A model generated the notes under the pieces. That model ran no database searches. It was not told where the DNA came from and saw only the letters and a program-made list of their open reading frames with translations. The translations under genes and the position numbers were made by a program. Shown one piece after another: positions 4,268 through 64,000 of a stretch of 64,000 bases of DNA. The stretch's first letter is position 1. The number at the start of each line of letters is the position of its first letter. Origin of the DNA: an uncultured Chloroflexia bacterium (GTDB taxonomy: Bacteria > Chloroflexota > Dehalococcoidia > Dehalococcoidales > RBG-16-60-22); NCBI GenBank assembly GCA_963796365.1, contig CAWCLJ010000004.1, forward strand, positions 1,162,519-1,226,518, given 5' to 3'.

Positions 4268-4480
4268 CATTATGTTATTTCAGGCTTGACCCAGGCGTGA
4301 TTCGTTTTTCAGGGGTATTATGGAAAGCTAATCTCGCATCAGGCGTGAATCGTTTTTTAAGGGTATTATGTTAAATCAGGCTCGGTCCAGGCATAAATCG
4401 TTTTTTTGACATATTATGGTAAGCCTAGATACGATTCAGGCTCAAGGGCCTTTTTCAGGGTAGTTATGGTAAGTGATAGT
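4268..4480 (+). repeat. 48-bp tandem repeat, about 4.3 units
   Basis: Unit starts at 4268, 4316, 4364, 4412 and 4461. Conserved cores are TATTATGG, CAGGC and CGTTTTTT; the rest is degenerate. Confidence 0.85.
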
Positions 4481-4741
4481 GGATAGTGAATAGTGAATAG
4501 GGTTGAGGGTTAAGGGTTGAGGGGTGAGAAAAACTTCAAACTCTAAATCCTAAAACTCTAAACAAGCACGAAATACGAAGCTCGAAGCACGAAAGCCCCA
4601 CCACAAACCATTCCGTCCCCCGTATCGCAGTACGGGTTCAACCTGGTTCCACCGAGGTCACCACGAGGTGAACGGTTCACCGTGAACGGGGCAGGCTTGC
4701 AACGGTATGGTTACGGGTGGGTGATAACCCATCTTACTACA

Positions 4742-4992: not shown

Positions 4993-6672
4993 TTAAGGAA
5001 TTTTATTTTCATATACGTAATCGTATAAATTCCTAGCTTCTAGGTTGTTATTTTCAGCAAGTATTTGTGCTAAATATGAAGTCGATAAGGTAAGATTAGC
5101 ATTGTCTTTTGCAAACTGACGTATTTTTGCAAGTAATTGTTTTCCTTCAGATAAAGTATGCCTTTTTGAGGCATCATTCCATATTAGATCAAATTTTGGC
5201 TTTATTTCTTCATAAACGGTATAAAATTCTTTACCTTTTGCAATAGGCGAAAATTTTATAGTTGCTTGTACATATTTTATTAGAGTTGGTTCATGTAACT
5301 CGTTATAAGTTGAATTTAAGAAATCTAAAAAGAGATTACGCAATTGTTGTGGAAATATCGATAATAATAAATCTTGTTGAAGAAAAATATTTTCAAATTC
5401 ATGTCCAGGTGTGAACGTTGTCCTAATCCCATTTCTTAAAAGCTCAATTGAAATTTTCTCAAGATAATCACCTGGATAAAAATCTTTGTCTAATAATAAA
5501 GAAAAAGAAGGTTCTTTTGCAAAGAACATTTTGTAAGCATTTTTATACGAAGAACAATCTTGCCACTTATTCAAGCCGAAAATTGGAATGTTATGAGTAC
5601 GAACAGATGAACCAAAGGCCTTAGCAATTTGTGTCAATAATGCATAGTCTTGAACATTCTCAGTAAAAATTATTCTCTCTACATCCTCAAATTGCGAGGC
5701 CACAAGATTAAATGAACTACCTATATCTTGGCGAATTTCCTCTAGACGATCTCTATTTTGAGTTGGTGTTGGTTTTGAAATATTGATTCCGCGTTTTATA
5801 TGTAAAATATGACTGAAATCAACCTCATTCATTAATTCAGAGGAATGTGTTGCAATTATCATTGAACCGGTAAAATATTCACGGAAGGTCTGTATCATAA
5901 TATGTTGCATTTCAGGATGTAAGAATATTTCAGGTTCATCTAATACTATTGTAGAACAATAAGAAAGTCTGACGAGATGGGTCATGAGTTGTAGCCAAAT
6001 TTGGAAACCTTGACCAGCGTAAGAAATTTCTCCCGTAATATTTCTTTCGGTAAAGGGACAATAAAGAATGTTTGTAGAACGATCATGTCCGACATCTCCG
6101 AGTATAGTTCTATTCCATGTTTCATAAATAATATTTTTTACTAATTCTCGTTGCTCGGGAGTTAGAAGTTGATATATATGATTTCTAATATGTAAAGGAG
6201 CTAATGAAGTATTTAAATGACTAAGAATATGGTCCCTACTTAAAAGTGCTTCCTCTTCGCGGATTTGACCTAATGGAGGCATAAACCCTAAAAGTGATTT
6301 AAGTGATGAAGGAGAATAAGCAGGTAAATTACATATAACCTGTTCCTTCTCACTATCAATATGAACTATTATTTCACGGCCGTTATCAAGTTCTGCCTGA
6401 ATTTCTGCAATACCATCTTGAAAACCATGGATTAGTCTGCGTAAATTTAAATCCTTAAGGTCACTAGCGTACAGTTGATGTTCAACCTCTCGGGTAGTTC
6501 CTTTTGCAAATCTAAAAGAATTTTCAAGCAATCTAAGCGCACGAAGAAGAGAACTCTTTCCAACATTATTCTTCCCTGTTATTAGAACGAATGCTTGATT
6601 GTCAGTAGGAAATTCAAATTCGTGACTAGAGTATGGACCAAAATTTTGCAAAATTATCCGTTGGATTTTCAT
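4993..6672 (-). CDS. ABC-type ATPase fused to TOPRIM/DUF4435-like domain (OLD-family / PARIS-like nuclease candidate)
   Basis: Start 'MKIQRIILQNFGPY' at 6672. The listed ORF extends upstream only because it reads into the IS. Walker A 'GKNNVGKS', 'YAGQGFQ', Walker B 'IVLDEPEIFLHP', 'ATHS'. C-terminal 'IIFTENVQD' and 'LLLDKDF'. Strongly AT-rich. Confidence 0.7.
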   Translation of the reverse strand: MKIQRIILQNFGPYSSHEFEFPTDNQAFVLITGKNNVGKSSLLRALRLLENSFRFAKGTTREVEHQLYASDLKDLNLRRLIHGFQDGIAEIQAELDNGREIIVHIDSEKEQVICNLPAYSPSSLKSLLGFMPPLGQIREEEALLSRDHILSHLNTSLAPLHIRNHIYQLLTPEQRELVKNIIYETWNRTILGDVGHDRSTNILYCPFTERNITGEISYAGQGFQIWLQLMTHLVRLSYCSTIVLDEPEIFLHPEMQHIMIQTFREYFTGSMIIATHSSELMNEVDFSHILHIKRGINISKPTPTQNRDRLEEIRQDIGSSFNLVASQFEDVERIIFTENVQDYALLTQIAKAFGSSVRTHNIPIFGLNKWQDCSSYKNAYKMFFAKEPSFSLLLDKDFYPGDYLEKISIELLRNGIRTTFTPGHEFENIFLQQDLLLSIFPQQLRNLFLDFLNSTYNELHEPTLIKYVQATIKFSPIAKGKEFYTVYEEIKPKFDLIWNDASKRHTLSEGKQLLAKIRQFAKDNANLTLSTSYLAQILAENNNLEARNLYDYVYENKIP

Positions 6673-6820
6673 AATATTTGACAAAGTATAAAACAAATAA
6701 ATAGGACAGTCAAGAAATAAAAATCGTTCATAACGCTTAAGATATACAAAAATCTCGTTTATTCTAAAAGCTAAATCATTATTTGTCAGTCCCCTCCTAG
6801 CCATATACGTAACCGAACCA

Positions 6821-8183
6821 GAGGTTCCGTCAATAGGTGTGTAAATGTCAGGCGACGGCAAGTACCTCCTCCTGTTTGATTTCTCCCGGGCCCAGGCTTT
6901 CGATACCCAGGTAAACTTCCTGTAATATCTCCGGTGCATCCAGCTTTCTGAATCGCTGCTCGGCAATCAAAAGCATCTTCCAGGTTACTGCCGTAGCGTT
7001 GGCCACTTTCTTAAAGCGCTTGGCCGCATCGGTCCGCAGTCTCAGAGCGGCGAAGGGCGATTCGACCGGGTTGGTGGTTCGAAGATGCTTCCAGTGCTCC
7101 TTCGGGAACCGATAAAAGGTCACCATCCGCTCCCAGTCATGCTCTAGTGCCGCGGCGGCCCGGTCATAGCCTTCTTTCCGGCACCAGCGGACGAAGTGGT
7201 CGCGCTTAACTTCGGCTTCCTCGCGGTCTGCCGAGTACACAATTCCCTGTAATTCATTCTTAGCATTGCCTTGTGCCTTCTTCGGTAACTTATCCAGCAC
7301 GTTTCGCACTTTGTGATTCCAGCAACGCTGCTCCAGCGCATCGGGAAAGACAGCATTCAAGGCTCCCCAGATGCCCAGGTGACCATCGCCCACTACCAGC
7401 CGGGGACAGTTCAGACCGCGTCCTTTGAGGGAACGCAACAGGTCGGACCAGCTTTCGGTAGATTCGCGATACCCGGGCTCCACCGCCAGGATCACCTTCC
7501 GCCCATCGCTTAATGCGCCGATCACCACCAGCAGCGCCGCCTTAGTTTTCTCCAGACCAGCCTTGATGTATACTCCGTCAACCCACATGTAGACCAGTCT
7601 CAGACCTTTGAGACTGCGCCGCCGCCACTCTTCCCATTCAGCTTGCCAGCTCTCCTTGAGTCGGGCTATCGTACTGGCGGAGATGGGCGCCTCTTCTCCC
7701 AACAGACCCCGTAGCGCCAGGTCAAAATCACCTTGCGCCAGACCGTGCAGGTAAAGCTGTGGTAAAAGCTGATTTACCTCTTTCGTCCTTCTGGCGAACA
7801 ACGGCAATACCCGGCTCTTGAAACGCTCCGCCAGACCTCTGACCCTGGGCCGGCGCACGGTAATGGTCCCACAGCCCAGCGTTAGCCTTCGCCGCTTGCC
7901 GTAGCCATTCCGGTACGCCCGCGAAGCATCCAGTCCCTCGCGCCGCTCGGACTTGCCGCGCCCCAACAGCTCTGTTATTTCATCTTCCAGTAGAGCCTGG
8001 ATGAATTCCCTCACCTTCACCCGCACCATCTCTTCGAGATAATCCCAGACTTTACTTGACGACTCCGGCTTCCCTGTGGTTTGCTTTCCCATGGTGGTGG
8101 GTACCCTCCTTCTGTTTGTTTCATCACTAACAGAAAGGGTACTCGCTGCCGCTAACTATTTCCACACTTTTTGATGATACCTC
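6821..8183 (-). mobile_element. IS256-family insertion sequence, apparently intact
   Basis: Imperfect terminal inverted repeats (GAGGTTCCGTCAATAGGTGTGTAAATG... versus the reverse complement GAGGTATCATCAAAAAGTGTGGAAATA...). 8-bp direct target duplication CCGAACCA at 6813-6820 and 8184-8191. Confidence 0.9.
6848..8092 (-). CDS. IS256-family (mutator-type) transposase
   Basis: 414-aa ORF with 'VYMWVDGVY', 'VVGDGHLG' and 'RCWNHKVRNVL' blocks characteristic of Transposase_mut. Confidence 0.9.
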   Translation of the reverse strand: MGKQTTGKPESSSKVWDYLEEMVRVKVREFIQALLEDEITELLGRGKSERREGLDASRAYRNGYGKRRRLTLGCGTITVRRPRVRGLAERFKSRVLPLFARRTKEVNQLLPQLYLHGLAQGDFDLALRGLLGEEAPISASTIARLKESWQAEWEEWRRRSLKGLRLVYMWVDGVYIKAGLEKTKAALLVVIGALSDGRKVILAVEPGYRESTESWSDLLRSLKGRGLNCPRLVVGDGHLGIWGALNAVFPDALEQRCWNHKVRNVLDKLPKKAQGNAKNELQGIVYSADREEAEVKRDHFVRWCRKEGYDRAAAALEHDWERMVTFYRFPKEHWKHLRTTNPVESPFAALRLRTDAAKRFKKVANATAVTWKMLLIAEQRFRKLDAPEILQEVYLGIESLGPGEIKQEEVLAVA

Positions 8184-8567: not shown

Positions 8568-9644
8568 ATGCGCATAGGTATGATAGCTCCCCTGGAAATG
8601 CGTGTCCCCCCGGTGGCTTACGGCGGCACGGAACTGCTGGTAAGCCTGCTCACGGAAGAGCTGGTGAGGCTGGGGCATAACGTCACCCTTTACGCCAGCG
8701 GGGATTCAGTGACCAATGCCAGGCTGGTATCCTGCTGCTCCACATTTTTAAGAGGGTCGCCCAAAGATAAGTGGGTCTATAACCTGCGCAACGTGGCGGC
8801 CTGCCTGGAAAACGCCGGGAGCTTCGATATTATCCACAACCATACGTTTACCGAGGGGCTTTCCATGGCGGGGTTGAGCAAGACGCCCGTCCTCACCACG
8901 CTGCACGGCATCCTCGAGACGGAATGGAAAGAGCTTTTCCTGGCTTATAAAGGCTGGTACAACACCATCAGTTTTTCCGCCAAGGAATTACTGCCGGCGA
9001 AAGACCGTTTTGCCGGGGTCATCTATAACGCCATCGACGTGGACTCCTATCCTTTTAAAGCGGCCGCCGGAGAGGACTACATGCTGTTTTTAAGCCGCAT
9101 CAGCCATGAAAAAGGGCCGGACATCGCCATCGAGGTGGCAAAAAGGATGGGGAGGAAGCTCATCATCGCCGGGAACATAGATACCAGAGATGTGCCTTTC
9201 TGGGAAGAAGAAATCAAGCCTGAAATCGATAACGACCTGATTACATACATCGGGGAAGCCGATTATAAGACGAAAAGAAAGCTGATGTCCGGGGCTTACT
9301 GCCTGCTGGCGCCCATCACCTGGAACGAGCCTTTCGGCCTTTTTATGGTAGAGGCGATGGCCTGCGGCACGCCGGTAATCGTTTTCAACCGGGGTTCGGC
9401 GCCGGAAATCGTCATCGACGGCCAGACGGGCTTTGTCGTGGACACGATAGACGATATGGTAAAAGCGGTGAAAAACGCCGGCAAAATAGATAGGGCGCGC
9501 TGCCGCCGGCACGTCAAATTCAACTTCGATGTACGGCGACTGGGGCAGGCCTATCTGGACGCCTACCGCCTGATACTGGAAGAAACTCACGGCAACGGCC
9601 GAAAAGGCTCCATGGAAACAAGGGAACAGTACTCTAATTACTAA
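8568..9644 (+). CDS. glycosyltransferase family 4
   Basis: 'PPVAYGGTELLVSLLTEEL' N-terminus and the E-x7-E region 'EPFGLFMVEAMACGTPVI'. Confidence 0.85.
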   Translation: MRIGMIAPLEMRVPPVAYGGTELLVSLLTEELVRLGHNVTLYASGDSVTNARLVSCCSTFLRGSPKDKWVYNLRNVAACLENAGSFDIIHNHTFTEGLSMAGLSKTPVLTTLHGILETEWKELFLAYKGWYNTISFSAKELLPAKDRFAGVIYNAIDVDSYPFKAAAGEDYMLFLSRISHEKGPDIAIEVAKRMGRKLIIAGNIDTRDVPFWEEEIKPEIDNDLITYIGEADYKTKRKLMSGAYCLLAPITWNEPFGLFMVEAMACGTPVIVFNRGSAPEIVIDGQTGFVVDTIDDMVKAVKNAGKIDRARCRRHVKFNFDVRRLGQAYLDAYRLILEETHGNGRKGSMETREQYSNY

Positions 9645-9871
9645 CATCAATTGGCAGGGGGTAAGTATCAATTGCCAAGTATCAAGTATCAAGGAAGTGA
9701 TAAGTGATAATCGTTAAATGATTAACCCCCTCCCCGAACCGATATCCTTCGCCAGGCTCAGGATGACAAAGGAGGGGAAGATTGATTATAAACAGAGATA
9801 CATGAGTTTGGCCAGTCATCCTCTCCCTTTGGTAAAGGGAGAGTAAGAGAAGGATTTTGAGTAAAAAATAA

Positions 9872-11947
9872 ATGGACCATCACCCTCAAGAAGAAAAGTC
9901 AGCCGCCAGCTTTGCATTTATACCCGCCATAGTTTCCATGGGGTCCGCCCGGGTTTCCTGCGGCACCCGCTTTATCGTCTCCGCCGATAACGGGGACATC
10001 GTTCCCCGGGAGCGCCACCAGGGTTTTTACGCGCATGATACGCGATTTCTTTCCCAGTTCACCGTTACCGTTAACGGAAAAAGGCTGAACAACGTCGGCC
10101 GTGCCACCTTCGAAGACCGGCTGGCGAGCTTTTACTGCACGGTCGGGCAGATGAGCATCGTGCGGGACCGGAACGTCTCCCAGGTTTTCCATGAGGACAT
10201 CAGCATTACCAATAACGGGATTCACCCGGTAAACGTAAACCTGGAGATTGCGCTGGGGGCGGACTTCGCCGATGTGTTCGAGGTGCGGCGTGGCACGGTA
10301 CATAAAGCCGGTAATATTACGCTGGAACAGTCCGGGCCGGAAGGGCTGACCCTTGCTTACCGGAGGGGAAATTATTTAAGGGAGACCAGAATCCGGTTCA
10401 ACACGCCGGTAGAGATGAAGGGCAACGTGGCCCATTTTGAATTTCAATTAATGCCGAAAGACATCTGGCGGACGTGCATCGATATCAGCCCGGTGATGAA
10501 CAGTCACGAACACCAGGCATCAGCGTGTGTCAGCGAGATACTGGGCAAGCCCTTCGGCAACTACCAGGACAAGACCTATCTGGGTTTCTTCCAGGAGGTC
10601 GAGACGGGGATGCCGCTGGAAAAAGTGCCTTCCATCAAGACCGATAACCCGGACCTGGCGCAGGCTTATCACCGGGCCGTGGGCGACCTGCGGGCGCTGC
10701 GCCTGCCGCAGCGAAACGGGTATTATGTGCTGGCGGCCGGTCTCCCCTGGTTCATGGCATTATTCGGGCGGGACTCCATCATCAGCGCCATGCAGACCAA
10801 GATACTCGGGCCGGAACTGATGGTCGGCACGCTGCATACACTTGCGAGTTTGCAAGCCACCGGGTTCGATAAATTCCGCGAGGCGGAGCCGGGCAAAATC
10901 ATCCATGAAATAAGGCGGGGGGAGCTTTCGCTCTTCGGGAATGTGCCGCATACCCGGTATTACGGCAGCGTGGACGCCACGCCGCTCTTTATCATGCTCT
11001 TATGGGAAGCCTACCGCTGGACCGGCGACGTTAAAATACTGGAAGACATGCTGCCTTACGCCGAACTGGCGATGGGCTGGATCGAAAAATACGGGGACGT
11101 GGATGAAGACGGCTTTACGGAGTACCGGCGGCGCATCAGCAAGGGGCTGATCAACCAGGGGTGGAAGGACTCTTACGACTCAATATCCTTTAACGACGGC
11201 ACCCTGGCGCGCGGGCCGATAGCTTTATGCGAGGAGCAGGGGTATGTTTATGCCGCCAGGAAAAGCCTGGCATCCGCCAATGAAGTCCTCGGCAACTTTA
11301 AACGCGCCGATGAGCTATTAAGCGGCGCCGAAAAATTAAAAAAACAGTTCAACCAGGCTTTCTGGATGCCGGAACATGATTATTACGCCATCGCGCTGGA
11401 CGGGAAAAAGCAACTGGTCGATGCCATTTCTTCCAACCCGGGGCACTGCCTCTGGACGGGCATCGCGGACGATGACAAGGTGGCAAAAGTGGCGCAGCGG
11501 CTGACAGCCCCGGACATGTTCGCGGGGTGGGGCGTGCGGACGCTTTCTTCCGAGGCGAAGCGGTACAATCCTCTTTCCTATCATAACGGCAGCATCTGGC
11601 CCCATGATAATTCCATCATCGCGGCGGGCTTAAGGCGATACGGGTTTTACCAGGAAGCGGCCAAAATAGCCATGGCTGTCATCGAGGCAACGGCCGTTTT
11701 ACCGTCCCACCGCCTCCCGGAACTGTATGCCGGCTATACGCGGCGCGCCTATTCTTTTCCCGTCCCTTATCCCGCCGCCAACTCCCCGCAGGCATGGGCA
11801 TCCGGCTCGGTCATTTATTTCATGGAGACGCTGCTGGAGATAACGCCGGAAAACGAGCAGCTTGTTTCCGGCCCGCTGGTAAAAGCCAACCCGATGTTTA
11901 TTTTAAACGGGGTGCGCTACAAGGATAAAAAGCAGGCACTGCCGTGA
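9872..11947 (+). CDS. amylo-alpha-1,6-glucosidase / glycogen-debranching-like (GDE_N_bis + GDE_C) protein
   Basis: 691 aa. N-terminal 'GFYAHDTRFLS' and C-terminal (alpha/alpha)6-type blocks 'GLPWFMALFGRDS', 'GWKDSYDS', 'YHNGSIWPHDN'. Confidence 0.8.
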   Translation: MDHHPQEEKSAASFAFIPAIVSMGSARVSCGTRFIVSADNGDIVPRERHQGFYAHDTRFLSQFTVTVNGKRLNNVGRATFEDRLASFYCTVGQMSIVRDRNVSQVFHEDISITNNGIHPVNVNLEIALGADFADVFEVRRGTVHKAGNITLEQSGPEGLTLAYRRGNYLRETRIRFNTPVEMKGNVAHFEFQLMPKDIWRTCIDISPVMNSHEHQASACVSEILGKPFGNYQDKTYLGFFQEVETGMPLEKVPSIKTDNPDLAQAYHRAVGDLRALRLPQRNGYYVLAAGLPWFMALFGRDSIISAMQTKILGPELMVGTLHTLASLQATGFDKFREAEPGKIIHEIRRGELSLFGNVPHTRYYGSVDATPLFIMLLWEAYRWTGDVKILEDMLPYAELAMGWIEKYGDVDEDGFTEYRRRISKGLINQGWKDSYDSISFNDGTLARGPIALCEEQGYVYAARKSLASANEVLGNFKRADELLSGAEKLKKQFNQAFWMPEHDYYAIALDGKKQLVDAISSNPGHCLWTGIADDDKVAKVAQRLTAPDMFAGWGVRTLSSEAKRYNPLSYHNGSIWPHDNSIIAAGLRRYGFYQEAAKIAMAVIEATAVLPSHRLPELYAGYTRRAYSFPVPYPAANSPQAWASGSVIYFMETLLEITPENEQLVSGPLVKANPMFILNGVRYKDKKQALP

Positions 11948-12078
11948 TAGGGGATAGAGAATAGGGAATAGTGAATAGGGAATAGGGAATAGGGAAAAGT
12001 TAAAACTCTAAATCTTAAACCCTAAATCCTAAACAAATTCTAATAACCAAATACCAAAACACCAAACTCGTCTTCTTA

Positions 12079-13339: not shown

Positions 13340-14544
13340 GATTGCTTCCTTTCAGATAAGGGAATCAGGGCGTTGATATGCGTACCTTTCCCGGGGATTG
13401 ATTCGATGTTGAATTCACCGCCAAGCGCCAGCGCCCGCTCCCGCATGCCGGTAAGGCCGGTGGTCTTTTTCATCCGTTCCGGTTCGAAGCCGACTCCGTT
13501 ATCCTCCACATCGATGCGGATGGCATTCTGCAGCCGGGAAAGGTGCACTTTTACTTCCATAGCTTTAGCATGGCGGATGATATTGGTCAGCGATTCCTGC
13601 ACAATACGGTAACAGGCCAAAGCCGCTTCTTCAGGAATATCACTGCTGATTTCACCGCTGAAACGGACATCCACCTTGACCCTGGTGCGGCGGGTAAAAT
13701 CATCCACCAGGGAGCCCACGGCGTGACCCAGCCCGGCACTGCGTAAAAGGTTGGGCGAAAGCATCGAAGAAAGGTCGCGTATCCTGGATATAGCTTCCTG
13801 TACCGTCGTTTTGGCTTCCTCAAGAATTTTCGCATCGGGTTTGCGGGTTGCCTTATCGATGAGCAGGGTAGCATAGGTCAATAACTGGCCTATCTCATCG
13901 TGGAGGGAGATGCCAATGACGGCCCGTTCCTGTTCCTGGGCATCCACCAAACGGTGGGCAAGGTCACGCAGCTCCCGGGTCCGTTCAGCGACGAGTTGTT
14001 CAAGGTGGTCGCGATGGCGTGTTAATTCCTCTTCAGCCCTTTTGCGCATCAATACTTCTATAATTGCGGGCGCCAGGGCCTCGGCGATGCGGACTTCTTC
14101 AGACCGGTAGCCGCCTTCCCGGTTGGCCAGGGCCAGTATGCCGATGGTTTTACCCTGATAGTTAAGCGGTACTCCTAAAAAATTATTTAGTCTGGGATGC
14201 CCGGGCGGGGTACCGTCACTATGGGGGTGATGTTCCGGGTCGTTAGCTACAAGGCTTTTACCTTCTTCAAGAACACGTCCGTAAAGTCCCTTGACGGGCA
14301 GATTATTCGGAAGTTTTCCATGGCCGGAAAGGACAGATAATAAACAATCATCATATGAAATATGATTTAAAGCAAGGTCATCCAGCCTGCCTTCAGGTTT
14401 TATCTCCCCGATAAAACCGAACTTGCTCCCGGTTAATTCTTCGGTGACCGATAAACAAACCGCCCCGAGCTGCTCCATGGTATCGGTGACCATATATTCA
14501 TGGAAAATACGGTTAATACCCTGTACAAGCTTACTCGTCGGCAT
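13336..14544 (-). CDS. GAF-domain sensor histidine kinase (HisKA_3 / HATPase_c)
   Basis: N-terminal GAF-like region, H-box 'SLHDEIGQLLT', 'NIIRHA' and G-box 'DNGVGF'. Confidence 0.85.
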   Translation of the reverse strand: MPTSKLVQGINRIFHEYMVTDTMEQLGAVCLSVTEELTGSKFGFIGEIKPEGRLDDLALNHISYDDCLLSVLSGHGKLPNNLPVKGLYGRVLEEGKSLVANDPEHHPHSDGTPPGHPRLNNFLGVPLNYQGKTIGILALANREGGYRSEEVRIAEALAPAIIEVLMRKRAEEELTRHRDHLEQLVAERTRELRDLAHRLVDAQEQERAVIGISLHDEIGQLLTYATLLIDKATRKPDAKILEEAKTTVQEAISRIRDLSSMLSPNLLRSAGLGHAVGSLVDDFTRRTRVKVDVRFSGEISSDIPEEAALACYRIVQESLTNIIRHAKAMEVKVHLSRLQNAIRIDVEDNGVGFEPERMKKTTGLTGMRERALALGGEFNIESIPGKGTHINALIPLSERKQS

Positions 14545-18693: not shown

Positions 18694-18747
18694 GACCGGG
18701 GGACGCCCCCGGAGCCCCCGCCAGAGAGAACTCTCTCCGGGCTCTCT
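18694..18747 (-). repeat. family-A element, copy A2
   Basis: The reverse complement reads GAGAGCCCGGAGAGAGTTCTCTCTGGCGGGGGCTCCGGGGGCGTCCCCCGGTC. Confidence 0.75.
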
Positions 18748-18956
18748 TTATTTCGTATATTTCTTGCTCATGCCTATTAAATTACCAAATCTCTTTACCC
18801 ACCGCAGGCCCCGTATCAACCTCTTTATGCAGATTATCTTTAGTAATTTTGGCTAATAGTTGATTAAGGGTAACAGGTTTTCTATTAACCAGTTTTTTAT
18901 TTTTGAGTTGTGGTTTTGAGATGTGAGATTTGATTTTTGATTTCTCCTTCCCACCC

Positions 18957-33691: not shown

Positions 33692-34289
33692 TTTTTACTC
33701 CGGGTTTATTACTTATAATTAACCAATATATTATAATGCATTACGCACATGACGTAAAGGGTTTTTAAATATTTTTAGGGGATAGAGAATAGGGTATAGG
33801 GAAATAGGACACAATGGATAGAGTTTGTCACTCCCGCGCAGCCTGCCCCGCACGACAATCGGGGGCCGGAATCTAACATTACCCAAATATATTTTAAGGG
33901 CTGTAACATAACGCATTGAATCAGCATAATACATTGTCACCCCTTGTTAAAGGGAGAGACGAAGAGGATTTGGGGGGAAGAGATTAACAGCTTATAAAAG
34001 GTAAATCCAGCCATCGCCACATATCAGGCGAAACAGGCTTCCAGTCTATCGGCACAGGCGGGGACGCCTGTGCCGCCGGGGAAAAAGGGTTGGGCTTTAG
34101 AATTTTCCCCTACTTATCTTCCCTTCGCCCTTCTCCCTGAAATCAGTATTTATCTATGTAACTGACTTGACAAGCCTGCGCGCAAGTGATAGGTTATACA
34201 TTGGTTTTCCAAGAGAGGCTGGGAATTCCTTTTTTACATTTAGTTCGATTCTATTACCGGCAGCCCTGTGAGTTACGAGAGGTGGAAAG

Positions 34290-38915: not shown

Positions 38916-39801
38916 GGTATGCCTGCTTATGTTTAATCTAAGATAAATTTACTCCAAACAGAATCAATATACAAGACGTGCAATCTCAAAAATCAAAAAT
39001 GAAATCTCATAACCACATCTTAAAGGTAAAATCTGTAGCGGTTTTTAGATACGAATCGTTTTGTAAAATATTGGATTTTAAAGTAATCTTTTTTATCGAA
39101 TATTTTTTGAGCGCGGCTGAAGCTAAATATTCGATATTCGATTTATGGTAAATAGCTTAATTTTCCCGGTTATTCGTTCCTTCGATTTACCAGCAGTCGG
39201 CTATTAGCTGTGAGCGATTAGCGATTGGCTTTCCAAATCCTCCTCGGCTCCTCCTTTTACAAAGGAGTGACGATGTACCCTGCAAAACGAGCAACATACA
39301 ATATAACCCCAAAATATATGCTAAGACAATGGTGGATTCCCGATTAGATCGGGAATGACAAGTGTAAAAAGGTGGGGCAGGCCTCCGTGCCTGCCCTGCA
39401 CAGGCGTGACGCCTGTAATACCGGCTTTATTCAGTTGTTAAGTTGCTTTAAAAGTACTTCTCTATTTTGTCATTCTGAGGAGTCCCGGAAGGACGACGTG
39501 AGAATCTCGAACATCGGGTTTGCACATACATTTAGATTCTCACGCCTTTCGGCCTTCGGCCTCAATGGCTCGCAATGACGGAGAAAAAAGAGCGAAGGTA
39601 ATAGTGCAAGGCAATAATAGTACAAATGTTCCGATAATGTCAAGAGGATTTTGTCAGAAATTGAAGCCGTAAAGAGAATGAAAATCCCTCTCTAACCCTC
39701 CCCTTACAAAGGGGAGAGGATGATTAGCTAAATCAATATATCTTTGGTTATATTCAATCTTTCCCTCTTTCGTAAGGAGGGATTAAGGGAGATTTAAAGA
39801 G

Positions 39802-43823: not shown

Positions 43824-43916
43824 AGAGAGTCCAGAGAGAAATCTCGCTGGCGGTCCGCCTGAGGCGGACGGGGGTGTCCCCCGGCCACTTCTCTCTTCGG
43901 GAAGGGAAAAGGGGAG
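43824..43916 (+). repeat. family-A triple-hairpin element, copy A3
   Basis: GAGTCCAGAGAGAAATCTCGCTGGCGGTCCGCCTGAGGCGGACGGGGGTGTCCCCCGG, followed by a CTCTC../GGGAA tail. Confidence 0.8.
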
Positions 43917-43968
43917 AAATATGAAAACTTATTTAGAATTTTTTCTTTCCTATTGCTGGCGCTTGCGA

Positions 43969-46245: not shown

Positions 46246-46363
46246 ATTTGTCATTCCCGTACATTCGCTTTGCTCAGTATAAACTCCGGCGGGAATCCAA
46301 CACGTTATCCTTTTATCATCGGTTTTTCAAAGTGGATTCCCGATTGGATCGGGAATGACAAAT
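46246..46363. repeat. 118-bp MITE-like element with 14-bp perfect terminal inverted repeats (C1)
   Basis: ATTTGTCATTCCCG at 46246-46259 and its exact reverse complement at 46350-46363. The left half recurs inverted at ~51375-51435 and the right half at ~39331-39365. Confidence 0.75.
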
Positions 46364-49387: not shown

Positions 49388-49506
49388 CCCTGGCAATGGC
49401 ATATTTTCCGCAAAGGGTTGCCCCCTCAGTATCGTCTGCGCTGAGGCGTTTCACTTCCGTGTTCGGGATGGGAACGGGTGGGTCCACCTCGCTCTAATCA
49501 CCAAGA
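49388..49506 (-). rRNA. rrf: 5S ribosomal RNA
   Basis: The minus strand reads CTTGGTGATTAGAGCGAGGTGGACCCACCCGTTCCCATCCCGAACACGGAAGTGAAACGCCTCAGCGC...GCCAGGG. The ends pair as helix I, and a T-run follows. Confidence 0.9.
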
Positions 49507-49660: not shown

Positions 49661-49762
49661 GAGTCCAGAGAACTCTCTGGCGGTCCGCCTGAGGTGGACG
49701 GGGGTGTCCCCCGGCATCCTCTCTCCTTGGGGAGGGAAAAAGGCGGGGCGCAAGGATTTAGA
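49661..49762 (+). repeat. family-A triple-hairpin element, copy A4
   Basis: GAGTCCAGAGAACTCTCTGGCGGTCCGCCTGAGGTGGACGGGGGTGTCCCCCGGC..GGGAGGGAAAAAGG..GGATTTAGA. Confidence 0.8.
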
Positions 49763-49891: not shown

Positions 49892-50113
49892 TTGGCCAGG
49901 GAAACGATAGGGGTACCGATTACGGGTAAAATCATCGCCGTCAACGTCAAACCCGGCGATAAGGTAAAAGAGGGGGACGTCCTCTGCACGCTGGAGTCCA
50001 TGAAAATGGAAAACCCCATTCTCTCGTCAGTGGACGGCACGGTGCTTGAAGTTGGCGTTAAGCCGGAACAAGTTGTAAAGCCCGGCGAGGTCATTGCGGT
50101 GATAGAGTATTAG
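49892..50113 (+). CDS. small biotin/lipoyl-attachment domain protein (BCCP-like)
   Basis: 'VLCTLESMKMENPI' biotinyl-Lys motif. 73 aa, TTG start after GGAAAGGAG. Confidence 0.75.
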   Translation: MARETIGVPITGKIIAVNVKPGDKVKEGDVLCTLESMKMENPILSSVDGTVLEVGVKPEQVVKPGEVIAVIEY

Positions 50114-50249
50114 GGGTTAGTGGGTAGTGGATAGTGAATAGTGGATAGGAAAATCCGAAGCACGAAGCAAGAAATAAGAAACAAATTCAAAACTTTAGAT
50201 AATAAGTTCAAAAGGGGGCCGAAAGGCCCCTTACTTTTTTTACAAGCGG

Positions 50250-57050: not shown

Positions 57051-57155
57051 AGAGAGTCCAGAGAGACTAGTCTCTTTGGCGGGGGCTCCGGGGGTGTCCC
57101 CCGGCTTCTTCTCTTCCCGGGGAGGGGAAAAGGAGTGGGGCATCAGGATTTAGAG
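57051..57155 (+). repeat. family-A triple-hairpin element, copy A5
   Basis: AGAGAGTCCAGAGAGACTAGTCTCTTTGGCGGGGGCTCCGGGGGTGTCCCCCGGC..GGGGAGGGGAAAAGG..GGATTTAGAG, located between ispD and ispF. Confidence 0.8.
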
Positions 57156-57777: not shown

Positions 57778-59223
57778 ATGAAAATCAGTGATACCCTGAC
57801 AGGTCAAAAAACCGAATTTAAACCTTTAAGCTCCCCGGTCACGATGTACGTCTGCGGCATCAATCCGTATGCGGACTCTCACATCGGCCACGCTATGAGC
57901 TATATTATTTTCGATGTCGTCCGGCGTTACCTGGAATTCCGCGGCTATAAAGTCAGGCACGTGGAAAACGTTACGGATGTCGAGGACAACATCATCAACC
58001 ATGCCAACCGCCTCGGTATCACCGTAAAAGAACTAACGACAAAGTACACCCAGCGCTATTTCGAGGACATGGCCGCGCTTAACATCCTTAAGCCCCATTT
58101 CGCTCCCCTCGCCACGGAGACTATCCCGGAAATCATCAAGACGACCCAAGGTCTTATCGATAAAGGCTTCGCTTATGCCGTCGGCGGCAATGTTTTTTTC
58201 CGTGTCCGTAAAGTATCGGACTACGGCAAGCTGTCCAAACGCACCCCGGAGCAAATGATGGCCGGGGCGCGTGTCGAAGCCGCCGAGCAGAAAGAAGACC
58301 CCATGGACTTCGCCCTCTGGAAAGAAGCCAAGCCCGGCGAGCCGTCCTGGGACAGCCCCTGGGGCAAAGGAAGGCCCGGCTGGCACATCGAGTGCTCCGC
58401 TATGTCCATGAAATTCCTCGGCGAGCAGATAGATATCCACGGCGGCGGCCAGGACGTCGTCTTCCCCCACCATGAAAATGAAATCGCCCAGTCGGAAAGC
58501 TACACCGGGAAAAAGCCCTTCGTCCAGCACTGGCTGCACAACGGCCTGCTGCAGTTAGGCGCGGAAAAGATGAGCAAGAGCCTCGGCAACCTTATCACCA
58601 TCCGCGATGCCCTTAAAAAATATACTTCCGATGGATTGCGTATTTTTGTATTAAGTTCGTACTATCGCAGCCCGCTTACCTATACCCAGGAGGCGATGGA
58701 TGCCGCCCAGACCGGCGCCGACCGGCTGCAGCGCGTGGCTGATAAGCAGACTACTGGCAAAGGAATGTTCGTTGACCCCAAGCCCTATTATGATAAATTC
58801 ATCGAAGCGATGGATGATGATTTTAATACCCCGCAGGCCATCGCCGTTCTCTTCGACCTTGCCCGGGACATCAACCGGGCGGAGGAAGACGGTAAAATCG
58901 CCGGCCAGGCCCGCCGCACGTTAAGGGAGTTGGGCGGTGTCCTGGGGCTGACCTTTAAATCCCGGGAAGAGACCCCTTTGGATGTCGAACCGCTCAAAAA
59001 ACTGGCCGAGAACATTTCGGAAAAAGCTAAAGCCGCCGGTATTTCTACCGCTGCTGTTCCACCAGATGTGGATGGTATTATGGCACTTTTGATCGATACC
59101 AGAAAAGAGCTGCGTCAAGTCAAGCAGTTCCAGCTCGCCGATGAAATCCGTAACGGTTTGAACGGAATCGGGATTATCCTGGAAGATACGCCCCAGGGCA
59201 CCACCTGGAAGCGGAAGCATTAA
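57778..59223 (+). CDS. cysS: cysteine--tRNA ligase
   Basis: HIGH-type 'DSHIGHA', 'GWHIECSAM' and 'KMSKSLGN'. Confidence 0.95.
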   Translation: MKISDTLTGQKTEFKPLSSPVTMYVCGINPYADSHIGHAMSYIIFDVVRRYLEFRGYKVRHVENVTDVEDNIINHANRLGITVKELTTKYTQRYFEDMAALNILKPHFAPLATETIPEIIKTTQGLIDKGFAYAVGGNVFFRVRKVSDYGKLSKRTPEQMMAGARVEAAEQKEDPMDFALWKEAKPGEPSWDSPWGKGRPGWHIECSAMSMKFLGEQIDIHGGGQDVVFPHHENEIAQSESYTGKKPFVQHWLHNGLLQLGAEKMSKSLGNLITIRDALKKYTSDGLRIFVLSSYYRSPLTYTQEAMDAAQTGADRLQRVADKQTTGKGMFVDPKPYYDKFIEAMDDDFNTPQAIAVLFDLARDINRAEEDGKIAGQARRTLRELGGVLGLTFKSREETPLDVEPLKKLAENISEKAKAAGISTAAVPPDVDGIMALLIDTRKELRQVKQFQLADEIRNGLNGIGIILEDTPQGTTWKRKH

Positions 59224-60678: not shown

Positions 60679-60869
60679 CTCGCACCTCCTTATGCTTTCC
60701 TTGCCTAGCAGAGTAACAAAATTGAAGCTATTTGTCAATAGCTGCAGGCTCAAAAATAGTCACTAATTTTAGCCAAAAAGTATAAAAAATGGGGGAAAAG
60801 CCTGGTTAAAATGGGCTTAAAGCAGGTAAAAAATACGTGTTTTACTATTAGTGCTGAGCCTTAGTGAAA

Positions 60870-61067
60870 CTATTGAAGGACGATGAAAATAACGACCAGG
60901 ACGATGGTAAGCTGGAAGAGGGTTTTTTCCACGCCCCGCTTGGTGCGGTAGACCGTATCCGCCTGCCCGAAGATGCCGCCCAGCCCGCCGCCCTTTACCT
61001 GGAGCAAGGATACGACGATCAGGGCTACCGCCACGACAATCTGCGCAATATATAAATAATTTATCAT
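60870..61067 (-). CDS. secG: preprotein translocase subunit SecG
   Basis: 'IVVSLLQVKGGGLGGIFG' and two TM segments. Confidence 0.85.
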   Translation of the reverse strand: MINYLYIAQIVVAVALIVVSLLQVKGGGLGGIFGQADTVYRTKRGVEKTLFQLTIVLVVIFIVLQ

Positions 61068-62548
<1,481 letters not shown>

Positions 62549-62635
62549 ATGTATTTCAGTTCAAAGACAACATTTCCAGTATAGCAACAATAGCGTTGGA
62601 GCGTGACAAGATATATGGAGACAGCCTGTAATTTA

Positions 62636-62644
62636 TGCTATAAT
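62636..62644 (+). promoter_or_regulatory. extended -10 element in front of the tRNA fragment
   Basis: TGcTATAAT ends 14 nt before the first tRNA nucleotide. Confidence 0.5.
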
Positions 62645-62658
62645 TTTTACGTTACTGC

Positions 62659-62705
62659 GGGGCCGTAGTTCACTCGGGAGAACGTCGCGTTTGCATCGCG
62701 CAGTC
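62659..62705 (+). pseudogene. tRNA-Ala(UGC) 5' fragment (acceptor 5' strand, D-arm, anticodon arm only)
   Basis: GGGGCCG-TA-GTTC-ACTCGGGA-GAAC-G-TCGCG-TTTGCAT-CGCGC. No T-arm or 3' acceptor strand follows; the sequence turns AT-rich instead. Confidence 0.7.
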
Positions 62706-63796
62706 AAGACCTAATGTACATTCCGGGCTATATGTCAACCAATCTCAAATTTCCAATTGTACAAAACTAAAATCCGAAAAAGTCTCAATAACAAAGACCA
62801 TCAAAAAATGCACTCGTCTTATTTAAAAGCATTCATGATCTCGACAATGCTCTTTTATATGTAATACCACTATATATATGAAATACCATATATTGGTACC
62901 TTTATATGAAATTTCCTGTAATCATTAATCAAGTGAGTGTATTTACCTTATCCCCTATGGCCCCCTTTTCCCTTCTTTTACAAAACAAATGGGCGAAGAA
63001 GACTCAGGACAAACTACAATCCAAATTTACAAGTATATCTATCATTCTATTTAAACGCTTGCTACCCCTTATAAAATCCTTCTACAGGGCTTCTCGTAAT
63101 CATTTAAAACACCAACTACATTCTAAACATTTAAATTTTTTCCAATACTTCAAAACTTCCCAAGAAATTTATCCAAAAAAACATGACTTTATTGACCTTT
63201 TTACCCCCTTCTTTTATCCTTTTTTTATACCCTCTGTGACATTTTTGATACTATTAATCAAGGGGCACTCCGGTGCGGCTGGGGCCGCTGCCGGAGTGGC
63301 GCCGACCATCCGAAACCGTCACCGCCTTTTTATTCTTTTTATATAAACTTTTTTTTACCTGCCAATCATTGCAAGACTTAATCAAGACGGCTATCAAAAT
63401 CAACATACTATTTTCAAACCTGAGAGAATTAATATACGTAGTCAAGTAATATAGTCGGCAGGCTTTCGGCCTCGGCGCCGACCGAGTCATCAAAGCCTTT
63501 CTCCAATCTTTTCTCAAACCGTCACTACACAACATATAATCAAAAAAAAGAGGGACTTATACACTAAACGTATAAATCCCTCTGAAATGCCAACCTTTAA
63601 CTAAAAGGCCATGTGTGTTAAGGTTCTCGCACACATTAAATGGCGTGATACTTCAAAACTGATGCGCATTAGTTTTATACCAGTACCGCAACCCTTACAT
63701 ATTAACTTTTTATGATACCCTCCATGATGTCAACTAAATCATACTTTTTATGTAAAAGTTTATCGATATCATTACATTCTAACTGCTAAAAAATTT

Positions 63797-64000
63797 TCAC
63801 TTTTCTTCCATTATCTTCTCTATCCTCACAATCAATATAGACAATACAATTGTGTAAATACCGATCAACATTAATAATATTGGTCTGTCTATATAAGGAA
63901 ACACATAATTTTTTATCAAAATCCAATTCTTAATAAAGTCAAATACACCTGAAAGAGTAATAATAGCTCCTAATGCAATTCCAACTTTAGCATTATTCTC
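63797..64000 (-). CDS. C-terminal part of a hydrophobic protein, 5' end outside the window
   Basis: Open frame from the window edge reads '..IALGAIITLSGVFDFIKNWILIKNYVFPYIDRPILLMLIGIYTIVLSILIVRIEKIMEEK*'. AT-rich. No family recognised. Confidence 0.35.
   Translation of the reverse strand, partial: ENNAKVGIALGAIITLSGVFDFIKNWILIKNYVFPYIDRPILLMLIGIYTIVLSILIVRIEKIMEEK

Follow-up and report, generated by a model that had tools for sequence, protein, structure and literature searches.

A tRNA-Ala(UGC) gene probably split by an integrative element that carries its own tRNA-Ala(UGC) in a Dehalococcoidia genome

We analyzed a stretch of 64,000 nucleotides (nt) from an uncultured Chloroflexia bacterium (contig CAWCLJ010000004.1; hereafter the window), near the right end of which a promoter and the 5′ part of a tRNA-Ala(UGC) gene border an AT-rich block. 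It is highly likely that positions 62694–62700 are the crossover core of the left attachment site (attL) of a site-specific integrative element of ∼6.03 kilobases (kb), which splits the tRNA-Ala(UGC) gene and carries a whole tRNA-Ala(UGC). In the mechanism we propose, recombination by a tyrosine integrase takes place between a short core in the attachment site of the element (attP; TTTA-CATCGCG-CAG) and, in the host tRNA-Ala(UGC) by gatB, the anticodon loop and 3′ stem. Insertion splits the gene, leaving the promoter and tRNA positions 1–42 on the left and placing positions 36–76 ∼6 kb away. Neither junction regenerates a tRNA. Directly after its integrase gene the element carries a complete tRNA-Ala(UGC) of its own, and precise excision of the element would restore the host tRNA gene.

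The tRNA-Ala gene beside gatB

The host promoter (62616–62644, plus strand) consists of TGGAGA, a 17-nt spacer and a TG-extended TATAAT, with 10 of 12 matches in a promoter scan. The tRNA fragment starts 14 nt downstream of the TG-extended −10 box (TGCTATAAT, 62636–62644), and a TGnTATAAT box upstream of the tRNA is also kept in relatives. The displaced 5′ fragment (62659–62700, plus strand, 42 nt) corresponds to tRNA positions 1–42 and reads GGGGCCG-TA-GTTC-ACTCGGGA-GAAC-G-TCGCG-TTTGCAT-CGCG, followed by CAGTCAAGACCTAATGTACATTCC and AT-rich DNA to the window end. It thus comprises the acceptor strand GGGGCCG from G 62659, the D arm (GTTC/GAAC) and the anticodon arm (TCGCG-TTTGCAT-CGCG). The Rfam tRNA model fits only the 5′ half (16.4 bits versus a gathering score of 29), and an Rfam scan of 62400–64000 otherwise returned sub-threshold chance matches only. 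ARAGORN calls zero tRNAs in the whole 64-kb window, the 3′ half expected from an intact relative, L048 (GGTAGGGGGTTCGAATCCCCCCGGCTCCA; searched as GGGGGTTCGAATCCCCCCGGCTCCA with up to three mismatches allowed), is absent from it, and the single T-loop-like match in the window, at 13481, is at chance level. The original prediction, which described a TGcTATAAT box followed by the acceptor 5′ strand, the D arm and the anticodon arm and found no T arm or 3′ acceptor strand in the window, was therefore accurate for 62636–62700 and for the window at three or fewer mismatches.

We scanned species-representative genomes with the N terminus of GatB and recovered loci from Dehalococcoidia and other Chloroflexota (best match 90% amino acid identity). 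Many Dehalococcoidia have a complete tRNA-Ala (UGC or CGC) that is divergent from gatB and lies ∼100 base pairs (bp) upstream of it; the site is thus the ancestral position of a tRNA-Ala gene. In L048 the tRNA-Ala(UGC) is uninterrupted, and its 5′ half matches the window fragment at 44 of 45 positions, the sole difference being position 43 (A; C in the window). The 5′ fragment is not a chance match, because it lies exactly where relatives keep a complete tRNA-Ala by gatB and because of this near-identity to L048. Intact tRNA genes read AAG where the window has CAG (62701–62703), a triplet that mimics tRNA positions 43–45. The arm to which it belongs, CAGTCAAGAC, is kept in other copies of the element, and the host tRNA thus stops at 62700; the mismatch at position 43 arises because CAG is element DNA past the 7-bp core. 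The tRNA had been proposed to end at about position 44–47: the fragment is real, but host sequence ends with position 42 and CAG belongs to the element.

The flanking gatB gene (60817–62548, minus strand) is divergent from the tRNA promoter and shares 82% nucleotide identity with the intact gatB of a metagenome contig, L081. It is broken into three overlapping open reading frame (ORF) pieces by single-base indels; the neighboring cysS (57778–59223) has no such breaks. As an essential role is expected for GatB in this group, the broken gatB looks like a local assembly error or strain mixing beside an integration hot spot, rather than a pseudogene.

Other events were seen at this locus in relatives. 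L081 contains a histidine kinase gene (9336–11453) and a response regulator gene (11383–11880) between gatB and the tRNA fragment (9099–11982); on either side of the pair lies a directly repeated 22-bp stretch of the tRNA promoter region (ATATGYTATAATTTTTAGGTCAG), and the pair would represent a second insertion. Partial extra copies of tRNA-Ala lie beside the intact gene in L001 (9671–9725), L015 (9520–9570) and L048 (9830–9894), all on the minus strand and each with the pseudo-anticodon arm TCCCGATTAYATCGGGR; in L015, a small ORF that we judge by eye to be GIY-YIG-like lies between the tRNA and the partial copy. These copies look like scars of a different small element at the same tRNA. Nine contigs of related genomes (L004, L006, L007, L008, L010, L011, L013, L026 and L047) end ∼50–300 nt from the gatB-linked tRNA-Ala, a pattern that a polymorphic or repeated site in natural populations would produce.

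Attachment junctions and the far end of the element

When metagenome contigs were scanned for exact matches to 28 nt of the fragment, one contig was returned, L081, which has the same 5′ part as the window and the same continuation, TCAAGACC. Through the integrase protein we reached a longer locus of L081 (L082) and two independent assemblies (L083 and L084). L082 contains the exact 3′ half of the tRNA, in the orientation of the 5′ fragment and ∼9.4 kb from it, at a point 50 nt upstream of the integrase gene. The L082 junctions read ...GTCGCGTTTG-CATCGCG-CAGTCAAGACC... (attL) and ...ACACATTTA-CATCGCG-AAGGTAGGGGGTTCGAATCCCCCCGGCTCCA (the right attachment site, attR), compared with TTTG-CATCGCG-AAGGTAG in the intact host site (attB) of L048. 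An exact attL 18-mer occurs in L081–L084, and L082, L083 and L084, three independent assemblies from a related organism, contain both this 18-mer and an attR 20-mer. A complete tRNA in L081 was considered as an inverted partner of the fragment and rejected, as the true 3′ fragment sits upstream of the integrase in L082.

The continuation of the window itself is provided by L085, a public contig from another data set, the reverse complement of which is 100% identical to window positions 63221–64000 over 780 nt, where the match ends. Adding the L085 continuation (4.8 kb) to the window yields an extended sequence of 68,761 nt. Past 64000, in window orientation, the minus strand encodes a 197-amino acid hydrophobic ORF, a 496-amino acid TPR protein, a 351-amino acid kinase, a tRNA-Ala(UGC) and a 386-amino acid integrase. 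The 197-amino acid product is a predicted small membrane protein. Its 3′ end leaves the window at 63797–64000 (minus strand, by translation; gene 4372–4965 of L085) and accounts for the partial hydrophobic ORF noted earlier at the window edge. The protein kinase gene (L085 1630–2685) matches the PADLOC model PDC-M71A over the full profile length (3.7e-100), and the TPR gene (L085 2682–4172) matches PDC-M71B (2.6e-120); the two are adjacent with a 4-nt overlap, so that both components of PDC-M71 are present, and the pair is a candidate anti-phage system of this type. The complete tRNA-Ala(UGC) lies at 67446–67519 of the extended sequence (minus strand). The integrase (P0004) is full length, matches PF00589 at 3.8e-14 and starts ∼40 nt from attR; its Arg-155, Lys-177, His-245, Arg-248 and Tyr-280 are invariant in the family alignment, in the columns of the catalytic Arg, Lys, H-x-x-R and Tyr. 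The island thus has a tyrosine recombinase gene next to an attachment site, located outside the window and linked to it by the 100% overlap. The attR core lies at about 68724–68730 and is followed by the 3′ tRNA fragment to 68761, so that the fragment with host positions 36–76 is found ∼6 kb from the 5′ fragment, just upstream of the integrase gene, and the element measures ∼6.03 kb between cores.

The two ends share the core CATCGCG, which in attL (62694–62700, plus strand) covers anticodon-loop positions 36–38 and the 3′ strand of the anticodon stem and forms the crossover region common to attR. Direct repeats from the target tRNA thus bound the island: attL reads TTTG-CATCGCG-CAGTCAAG, attR reads TTTA-CATCGCG-AAGGTAAG, and the intact attB of L048 is TTTGCATCGCGAAGGTAG. 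A wider repeat block agrees at 12 of 14 positions (TTTGCATCGCGCAG versus TTTACATCGCGAAG). The full junction strings are TTTGCATCGCGCAGTCAAGACC for attL and ACATTTACATCGCGAAGGTAAGG for attR; those predicted for attP and for the empty attB are ACATTTACATCGCGCAGTCAAGACC and TTTGCATCGCGAAGGTAAGGGG, respectively. When window 62659–62693 and the L085 3′ fragment are joined at CATCGCG, ARAGORN calls a tRNA-Ala(UGC) in which the stems are fully paired and G3:U70 is present. A junction pattern of this kind marks site-specific recombination at a 7-bp crossover core. The target tRNA is not regenerated at a junction: ARAGORN finds none at the window attL or at attL and attR of L082–L085, L087 and L090. 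In these six loci the internal tRNA is the sole tRNA called, and the element side of the junctions is non-tRNA DNA.

An assembly chimera at ∼62700, or loss of the 3′ tRNA half in assembly, could produce a truncated gene as well. The multiple single-base indels in the adjacent gatB suggest an error-prone assembly, and the window proteins have no record in the contig collection. However, the same junction, positions 1–42 followed by CAGTCAAGACC, is present in three independent assemblies of other samples, the element arm is family-wide, 63221–64000 is 100% identical to L085, and the 3′ half lies where the attachment-site model predicts it. We regard an artifact as highly improbable and retain the integrative element. 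The original prediction had left a choice between a disrupted tRNA and a rearranged island junction and had looked for the 3′ half as a distal att repeat and for an integrase beyond 64000. The tRNA is indeed disrupted at an island junction, but rearrangement is needless, as the window has a clean attL common to an element family; the 3′ half lies at the end of L085, which also encodes the tyrosine integrase and overlaps the window end at 100%. No complete tRNA can be recovered at the site, and the downstream block matches mobile-element copies only.

The element-side arm of attL (62701–62764, plus strand) reads CAGTCAAGACCTA and includes the palindrome ATGTACAT at 62714–62721 and a degenerate second copy, ATTGTACAA, at 62756–62764. 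The arm is conserved next to the 5′ fragments of L082, L087 and L090, with the family-wide pattern [C/A]A[G/A]TCAAG[A/T]C[C/T]TAATGTACATTC, and the palindrome is also found on the other arm, beside the integrase start. The palindromes flanking the core may be binding sites for the integrase or an accessory protein. With self-complementary copies after the 5′ half and before the 3′ half, the two RNAs could pair over 8 bp, and together with the strong promoter on the 5′ half this would fit a functional split tRNA, with halves transcribed apart and then joined or annealed as in Nanoarchaeum. Against this, the two sides share only an 8-bp AT-rich palindrome, which falls far short of the GC-rich complementary leader and trailer sequences of archaeal split tRNAs. 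Transcription of the 3′ half would have to run antisense to the integrase gene, and no promoter for it was seen; moreover, the complete tRNA with the same anticodon on the element makes a split gene needless. To our knowledge, bacteria also lack the archaeal splicing endonuclease. The two halves are thus almost certainly not a working split tRNA and are better explained as products of integration.

The remaining element DNA in the window is low in GC content (0.346 in 63001–64000 versus ∼0.50 in the rest of the window) and skewed, with 298 C and 153 G on the plus strand of 62691–64000. Its first part (62765–63453, no strand assigned) is AT-rich, C-skewed and apparently non-coding by six-frame translation and base composition. 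No credible ORF was found in it, in line with the AT-rich run of weak ORFs described before, and it has no homology to any locus compared; the equivalent part of L082, between the conserved post-cargo region and attL, holds orf93 and a Rep-like gene. Pfam returned nothing meaningful for a 146-amino acid ORF (62906–63346) or for the terminal hydrophobic ORF. Among 81 gatB loci compared with the AT-rich block by BLAST and tblastx, L081 alone gave a match. A conserved, hairpin-rich region after the cargo operon (63454–63743, minus strand) is 70–77% identical to the post-cargo region of L081/L082, and a terminator scan located an intrinsic terminator at 63549–63583 (minus strand).

The element family and its carried tRNA

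We find the same layout in at least four further lineages, with integrases 52–100% identical, sizes of 2.8–9.4 kb where both junctions are present and varying cargo. A tRNA-Ala 3′ fragment on the opposite strand lies just upstream of the integrase gene; a whole tRNA-Ala(UGC) follows 4–25 nt past the integrase stop codon, then variable cargo and, at the far end, the promoter-bearing 5′ fragment. The 9.4-kb element of L082, with an integrase 83% identical to P0004, contains Vsr, Dcm, a restriction-like ATPase, HNH and a Rep-like gene. Integrases ∼52% identical are found in L087–L089 (6.9 kb, both fragments, an N6/N4 methyltransferase and DUF6610 as cargo), in L090 (2.8 kb, both fragments, a NikA-like protein; a short twin, L091, has the attR side only) and in L092, where the contig ends after the attR-side module. 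An 87% identical integrase (P0002) has SNF2, SMC and Dnd-associated genes as neighbors. From their gene content, family members appear to be small defense islands. L087 and L090 share the core CATTCAGGA, which matches the anticodon stem of their own hosts; the attP core thus tracks the target.

The same integrase family extends to other designs. L095 (9900–13279; integrase 48% identical) contains a canonical, 3′-restoring element at tRNA-Ala(GGC), and L097 (2551–5893; 37% identical) contains a reverse, 5′-restoring element at tRNA-Val(CAC). A tRNA-Lys(CUU) variant (L094, 947–11243) carries ∼9 kb of plasmid- or virus-like cargo (SSB, a Rep-like protein and a 921-amino acid protein) and has, upstream of its integrase, a 3′ core that is inverted and truncated. 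One integrase family therefore contains restoring (3′), reverse (5′) and non-restoring designs. A profile scan of viral contigs for the integrase gave one match only, 27% identical, and the element is not represented among those contigs.

The window could also preserve a decaying relic, an old canonical island whose restored 3′ part was later deleted or rearranged to leave a dead stub with no mobile element. The first 750 nt past the junction are non-coding and of low complexity, the Rep-like gene and orf93 of L082 are missing at this position, the poor state of gatB leaves some room for decay, and relatives have other integration scars at this tRNA-Ala locus. Yet both cores are intact and identical, the L085 integrase is full length with conserved catalytic columns, the two fragments rebuild a perfect tRNA, and the non-restoring layout recurs across sizes and cargoes, which points to design over repeated decay. 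A relic is thus unlikely compared with a complete element.

To assess the carried tRNA, five distinct element tRNAs were aligned and scored against the 21 pairs of the cloverleaf. All cells (100%) form standard pairs, 8 of the 21 pairs are changed on both sides (compensatory), and the covariation score is 0.381 versus 0.122 for shuffles; when the 3′ partner is slid by 1–3 columns as a control, 36–56% of cells are paired. G3:U70, the alanine identity pair, is invariant across the five. The compensatory pairs and the invariant G3:U70 indicate that the carried tRNA is under selection. A −10-like GTAGAAT lies ahead of it in every copy; L087 and L090 have this box outside the integrase ORF. In the window element, the carried tRNA has an anticodon stem (CTTGG/CCAAG) without the CATCGCG core, and the element would therefore not target its own tRNA. 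The acceptor stems of the carried and host tRNAs differ (GGGGCGT/ACGCTCC versus GGGGCCG/CGGCTCC), and their 3′ halves are unlike (ACGCTCCA versus CGGCTCCA). In every non-restoring member seen, namely five Ala-UGC lineages and the tRNA-Lys(CUU) variant, the carried tRNA has the anticodon of the disrupted one. We infer that the carried tRNA replaces the disrupted host gene. It may be that the only tRNA-Ala(UGC) of the host is split and the element holds the sole working copy, as a tRNA “hostage”, so that loss of the element other than by precise, integrase-mediated excision would be lethal; we consider this possible, though less likely than not.

A reverse type of island is said to have been described by Zhao and Williams in 2002, in which the element brings a promoter and the 5′ part of the tRNA. 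In an island of that kind, the complete tRNA by the integrase would be the target after its regeneration, and the fragment in the window would be what was displaced from the host 5′ end. The window does contain a displaced 5′ fragment with its host promoter kept (62616–62644 and 62659–62700), which is the hallmark of this rare class (PMC6563490), and the tRNA-Val element of L097, a distant member of the integrase family, has exactly such a layout. The regenerated target should, however, be co-oriented with the 5′ fragment and use the host 3′ half, whereas the complete tRNA here is internal and opposite in strand to the two host fragments. Neither of its halves is that of the host gene, attR has a host 3′ fragment of its own, and no complete, co-oriented tRNA made of element 5′ and host 3′ parts was found at the far junction. 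We find a reverse-orientation island very unlikely and prefer a non-restoring element.

Several points weigh against the non-restoring element that we favor. The window covers attL and only 1.3 kb of the element, and its link to the integrase and 3′ half depends on the 780-nt perfect overlap with a contig of another data set. Window positions 62701–63220 have no independent copy, only the first ∼30 nt matching the family arm, and gatB differs from its intact L081 counterpart by ∼9 single-base indels, mostly insertions and outside homopolymers, which makes the assembly quality doubtful here. The attP, attL and attR strings were not found in the viral contigs scanned, no excised circle (attP) was found and no recombination directionality factor was identified. 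The tRNA calls cover the window and the element loci, and the replacement role is therefore putative.

Relation to known islands and other features of the window

Islands at tRNA genes normally contain a fragment of the tRNA gene in attP, so that integration restores the gene and leaves one displaced fragment, usually of the 3′ part (PMC4383910). tRNA-Ala is a documented recombination site and hot spot in Dehalococcoides, described from its repeated 3′ fragments (PMC2764846). Elements that recombine with the 5′ part are also known, but they are rare (PMC6563490). Like canonical islands (Islander/Williams; the tRNA-Ala and ssrA islands of Dehalococcoides), the element uses a tyrosine integrase that works site-specifically within a tRNA gene, near the anticodon-loop sublocation, and has short direct tRNA repeats at both ends and AT-rich cargo. 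Unlike them, it has a core of only 7–9 bp and leaves both halves displaced; a tRNA is found at neither junction, and the whole tRNA is internal. It shares a promoter-bearing host 5′ fragment at one end with reverse-orientation elements (reportedly described by Zhao and Williams 2002; archaeal cases in PMC6563490); those elements are reported to regenerate a co-oriented tRNA at the other junction by means of an element-borne promoter and 5′ part, whereas here the complete tRNA is internal, on the opposite strand, and neither of its halves is that of the host. As in small defense islands (tycheposons, pipolins and elements at tRNA genes resembling phage-inducible chromosomal islands), a few kb contain a tyrosine integrase by the attachment site, sometimes a Rep-like gene, and variable defense cargo (restriction-modification, Vsr, HNH, PDC-M71 and Dnd-associated genes). 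Tycheposons have partial tRNA flanks beside a full-length target tRNA, unlike the element described here, with all these classes compared by description.

Our literature search, of incomplete coverage, returned no description of a non-restoring element with a whole replacement tRNA, which is weak evidence of novelty. Programs for island detection, like textbook models, take it for granted that an element integrating into a tRNA gene regenerates its target. Islander filters reject candidates in which fragment and tRNA gene are oppositely oriented (PMC4383910), and software of this type would probably miss such elements. The layout suggests that an element can exploit a tRNA gene in ways other than restoring the target at a junction, and points to a possible tRNA-based resistance of small defense islands to deletion. 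If the host does depend on the carried copy, this would be an addiction strategy via a tRNA gene instead of a toxin-antitoxin pair, and an integrase family with three designs may show how such a strategy evolves. The element would also provide a bacterial case in which mobile DNA has physically divided a tRNA gene, of relevance to ideas on the origin of split tRNA genes, and its family would explain many Dehalococcoidia contig breaks at this tRNA.

Elsewhere in the window, a 65-amino acid ORF downstream of gatB probably encodes a putative SecG. A second AT-rich block (4993–8092, minus strand, GC content 0.31–0.37) encodes a 657-amino acid AAA_15/AAA_21 ATPase (OLD/AbiEii-like) beside an IS256-family (Transposase_mut) transposase; the ATPase is probably another acquired defense gene. 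A solitary 5S ribosomal RNA (rRNA) gene is located at 49388–49505 (minus strand, 88 bits), with no 23S or 16S rRNA match in the window. Three kinds of intergenic repeats recur: runs of GGATAGTGAATAG-like heptamers (4467–4554, 11945–12033, 33759–33808 and 50108–50157), a GC-rich palindrome, CGGGGGTGTCCCCCGG, with conserved flanks (43837–43922, 49667–49752, 57089–57142 and 18696–18753), and a hairpin, GTGGATTCCCGATTRGATCGGGAATGACAA (39332–39361 and 46332–46361), the stem of which resembles the pseudo-anticodon arm of the tRNA scars in relatives.

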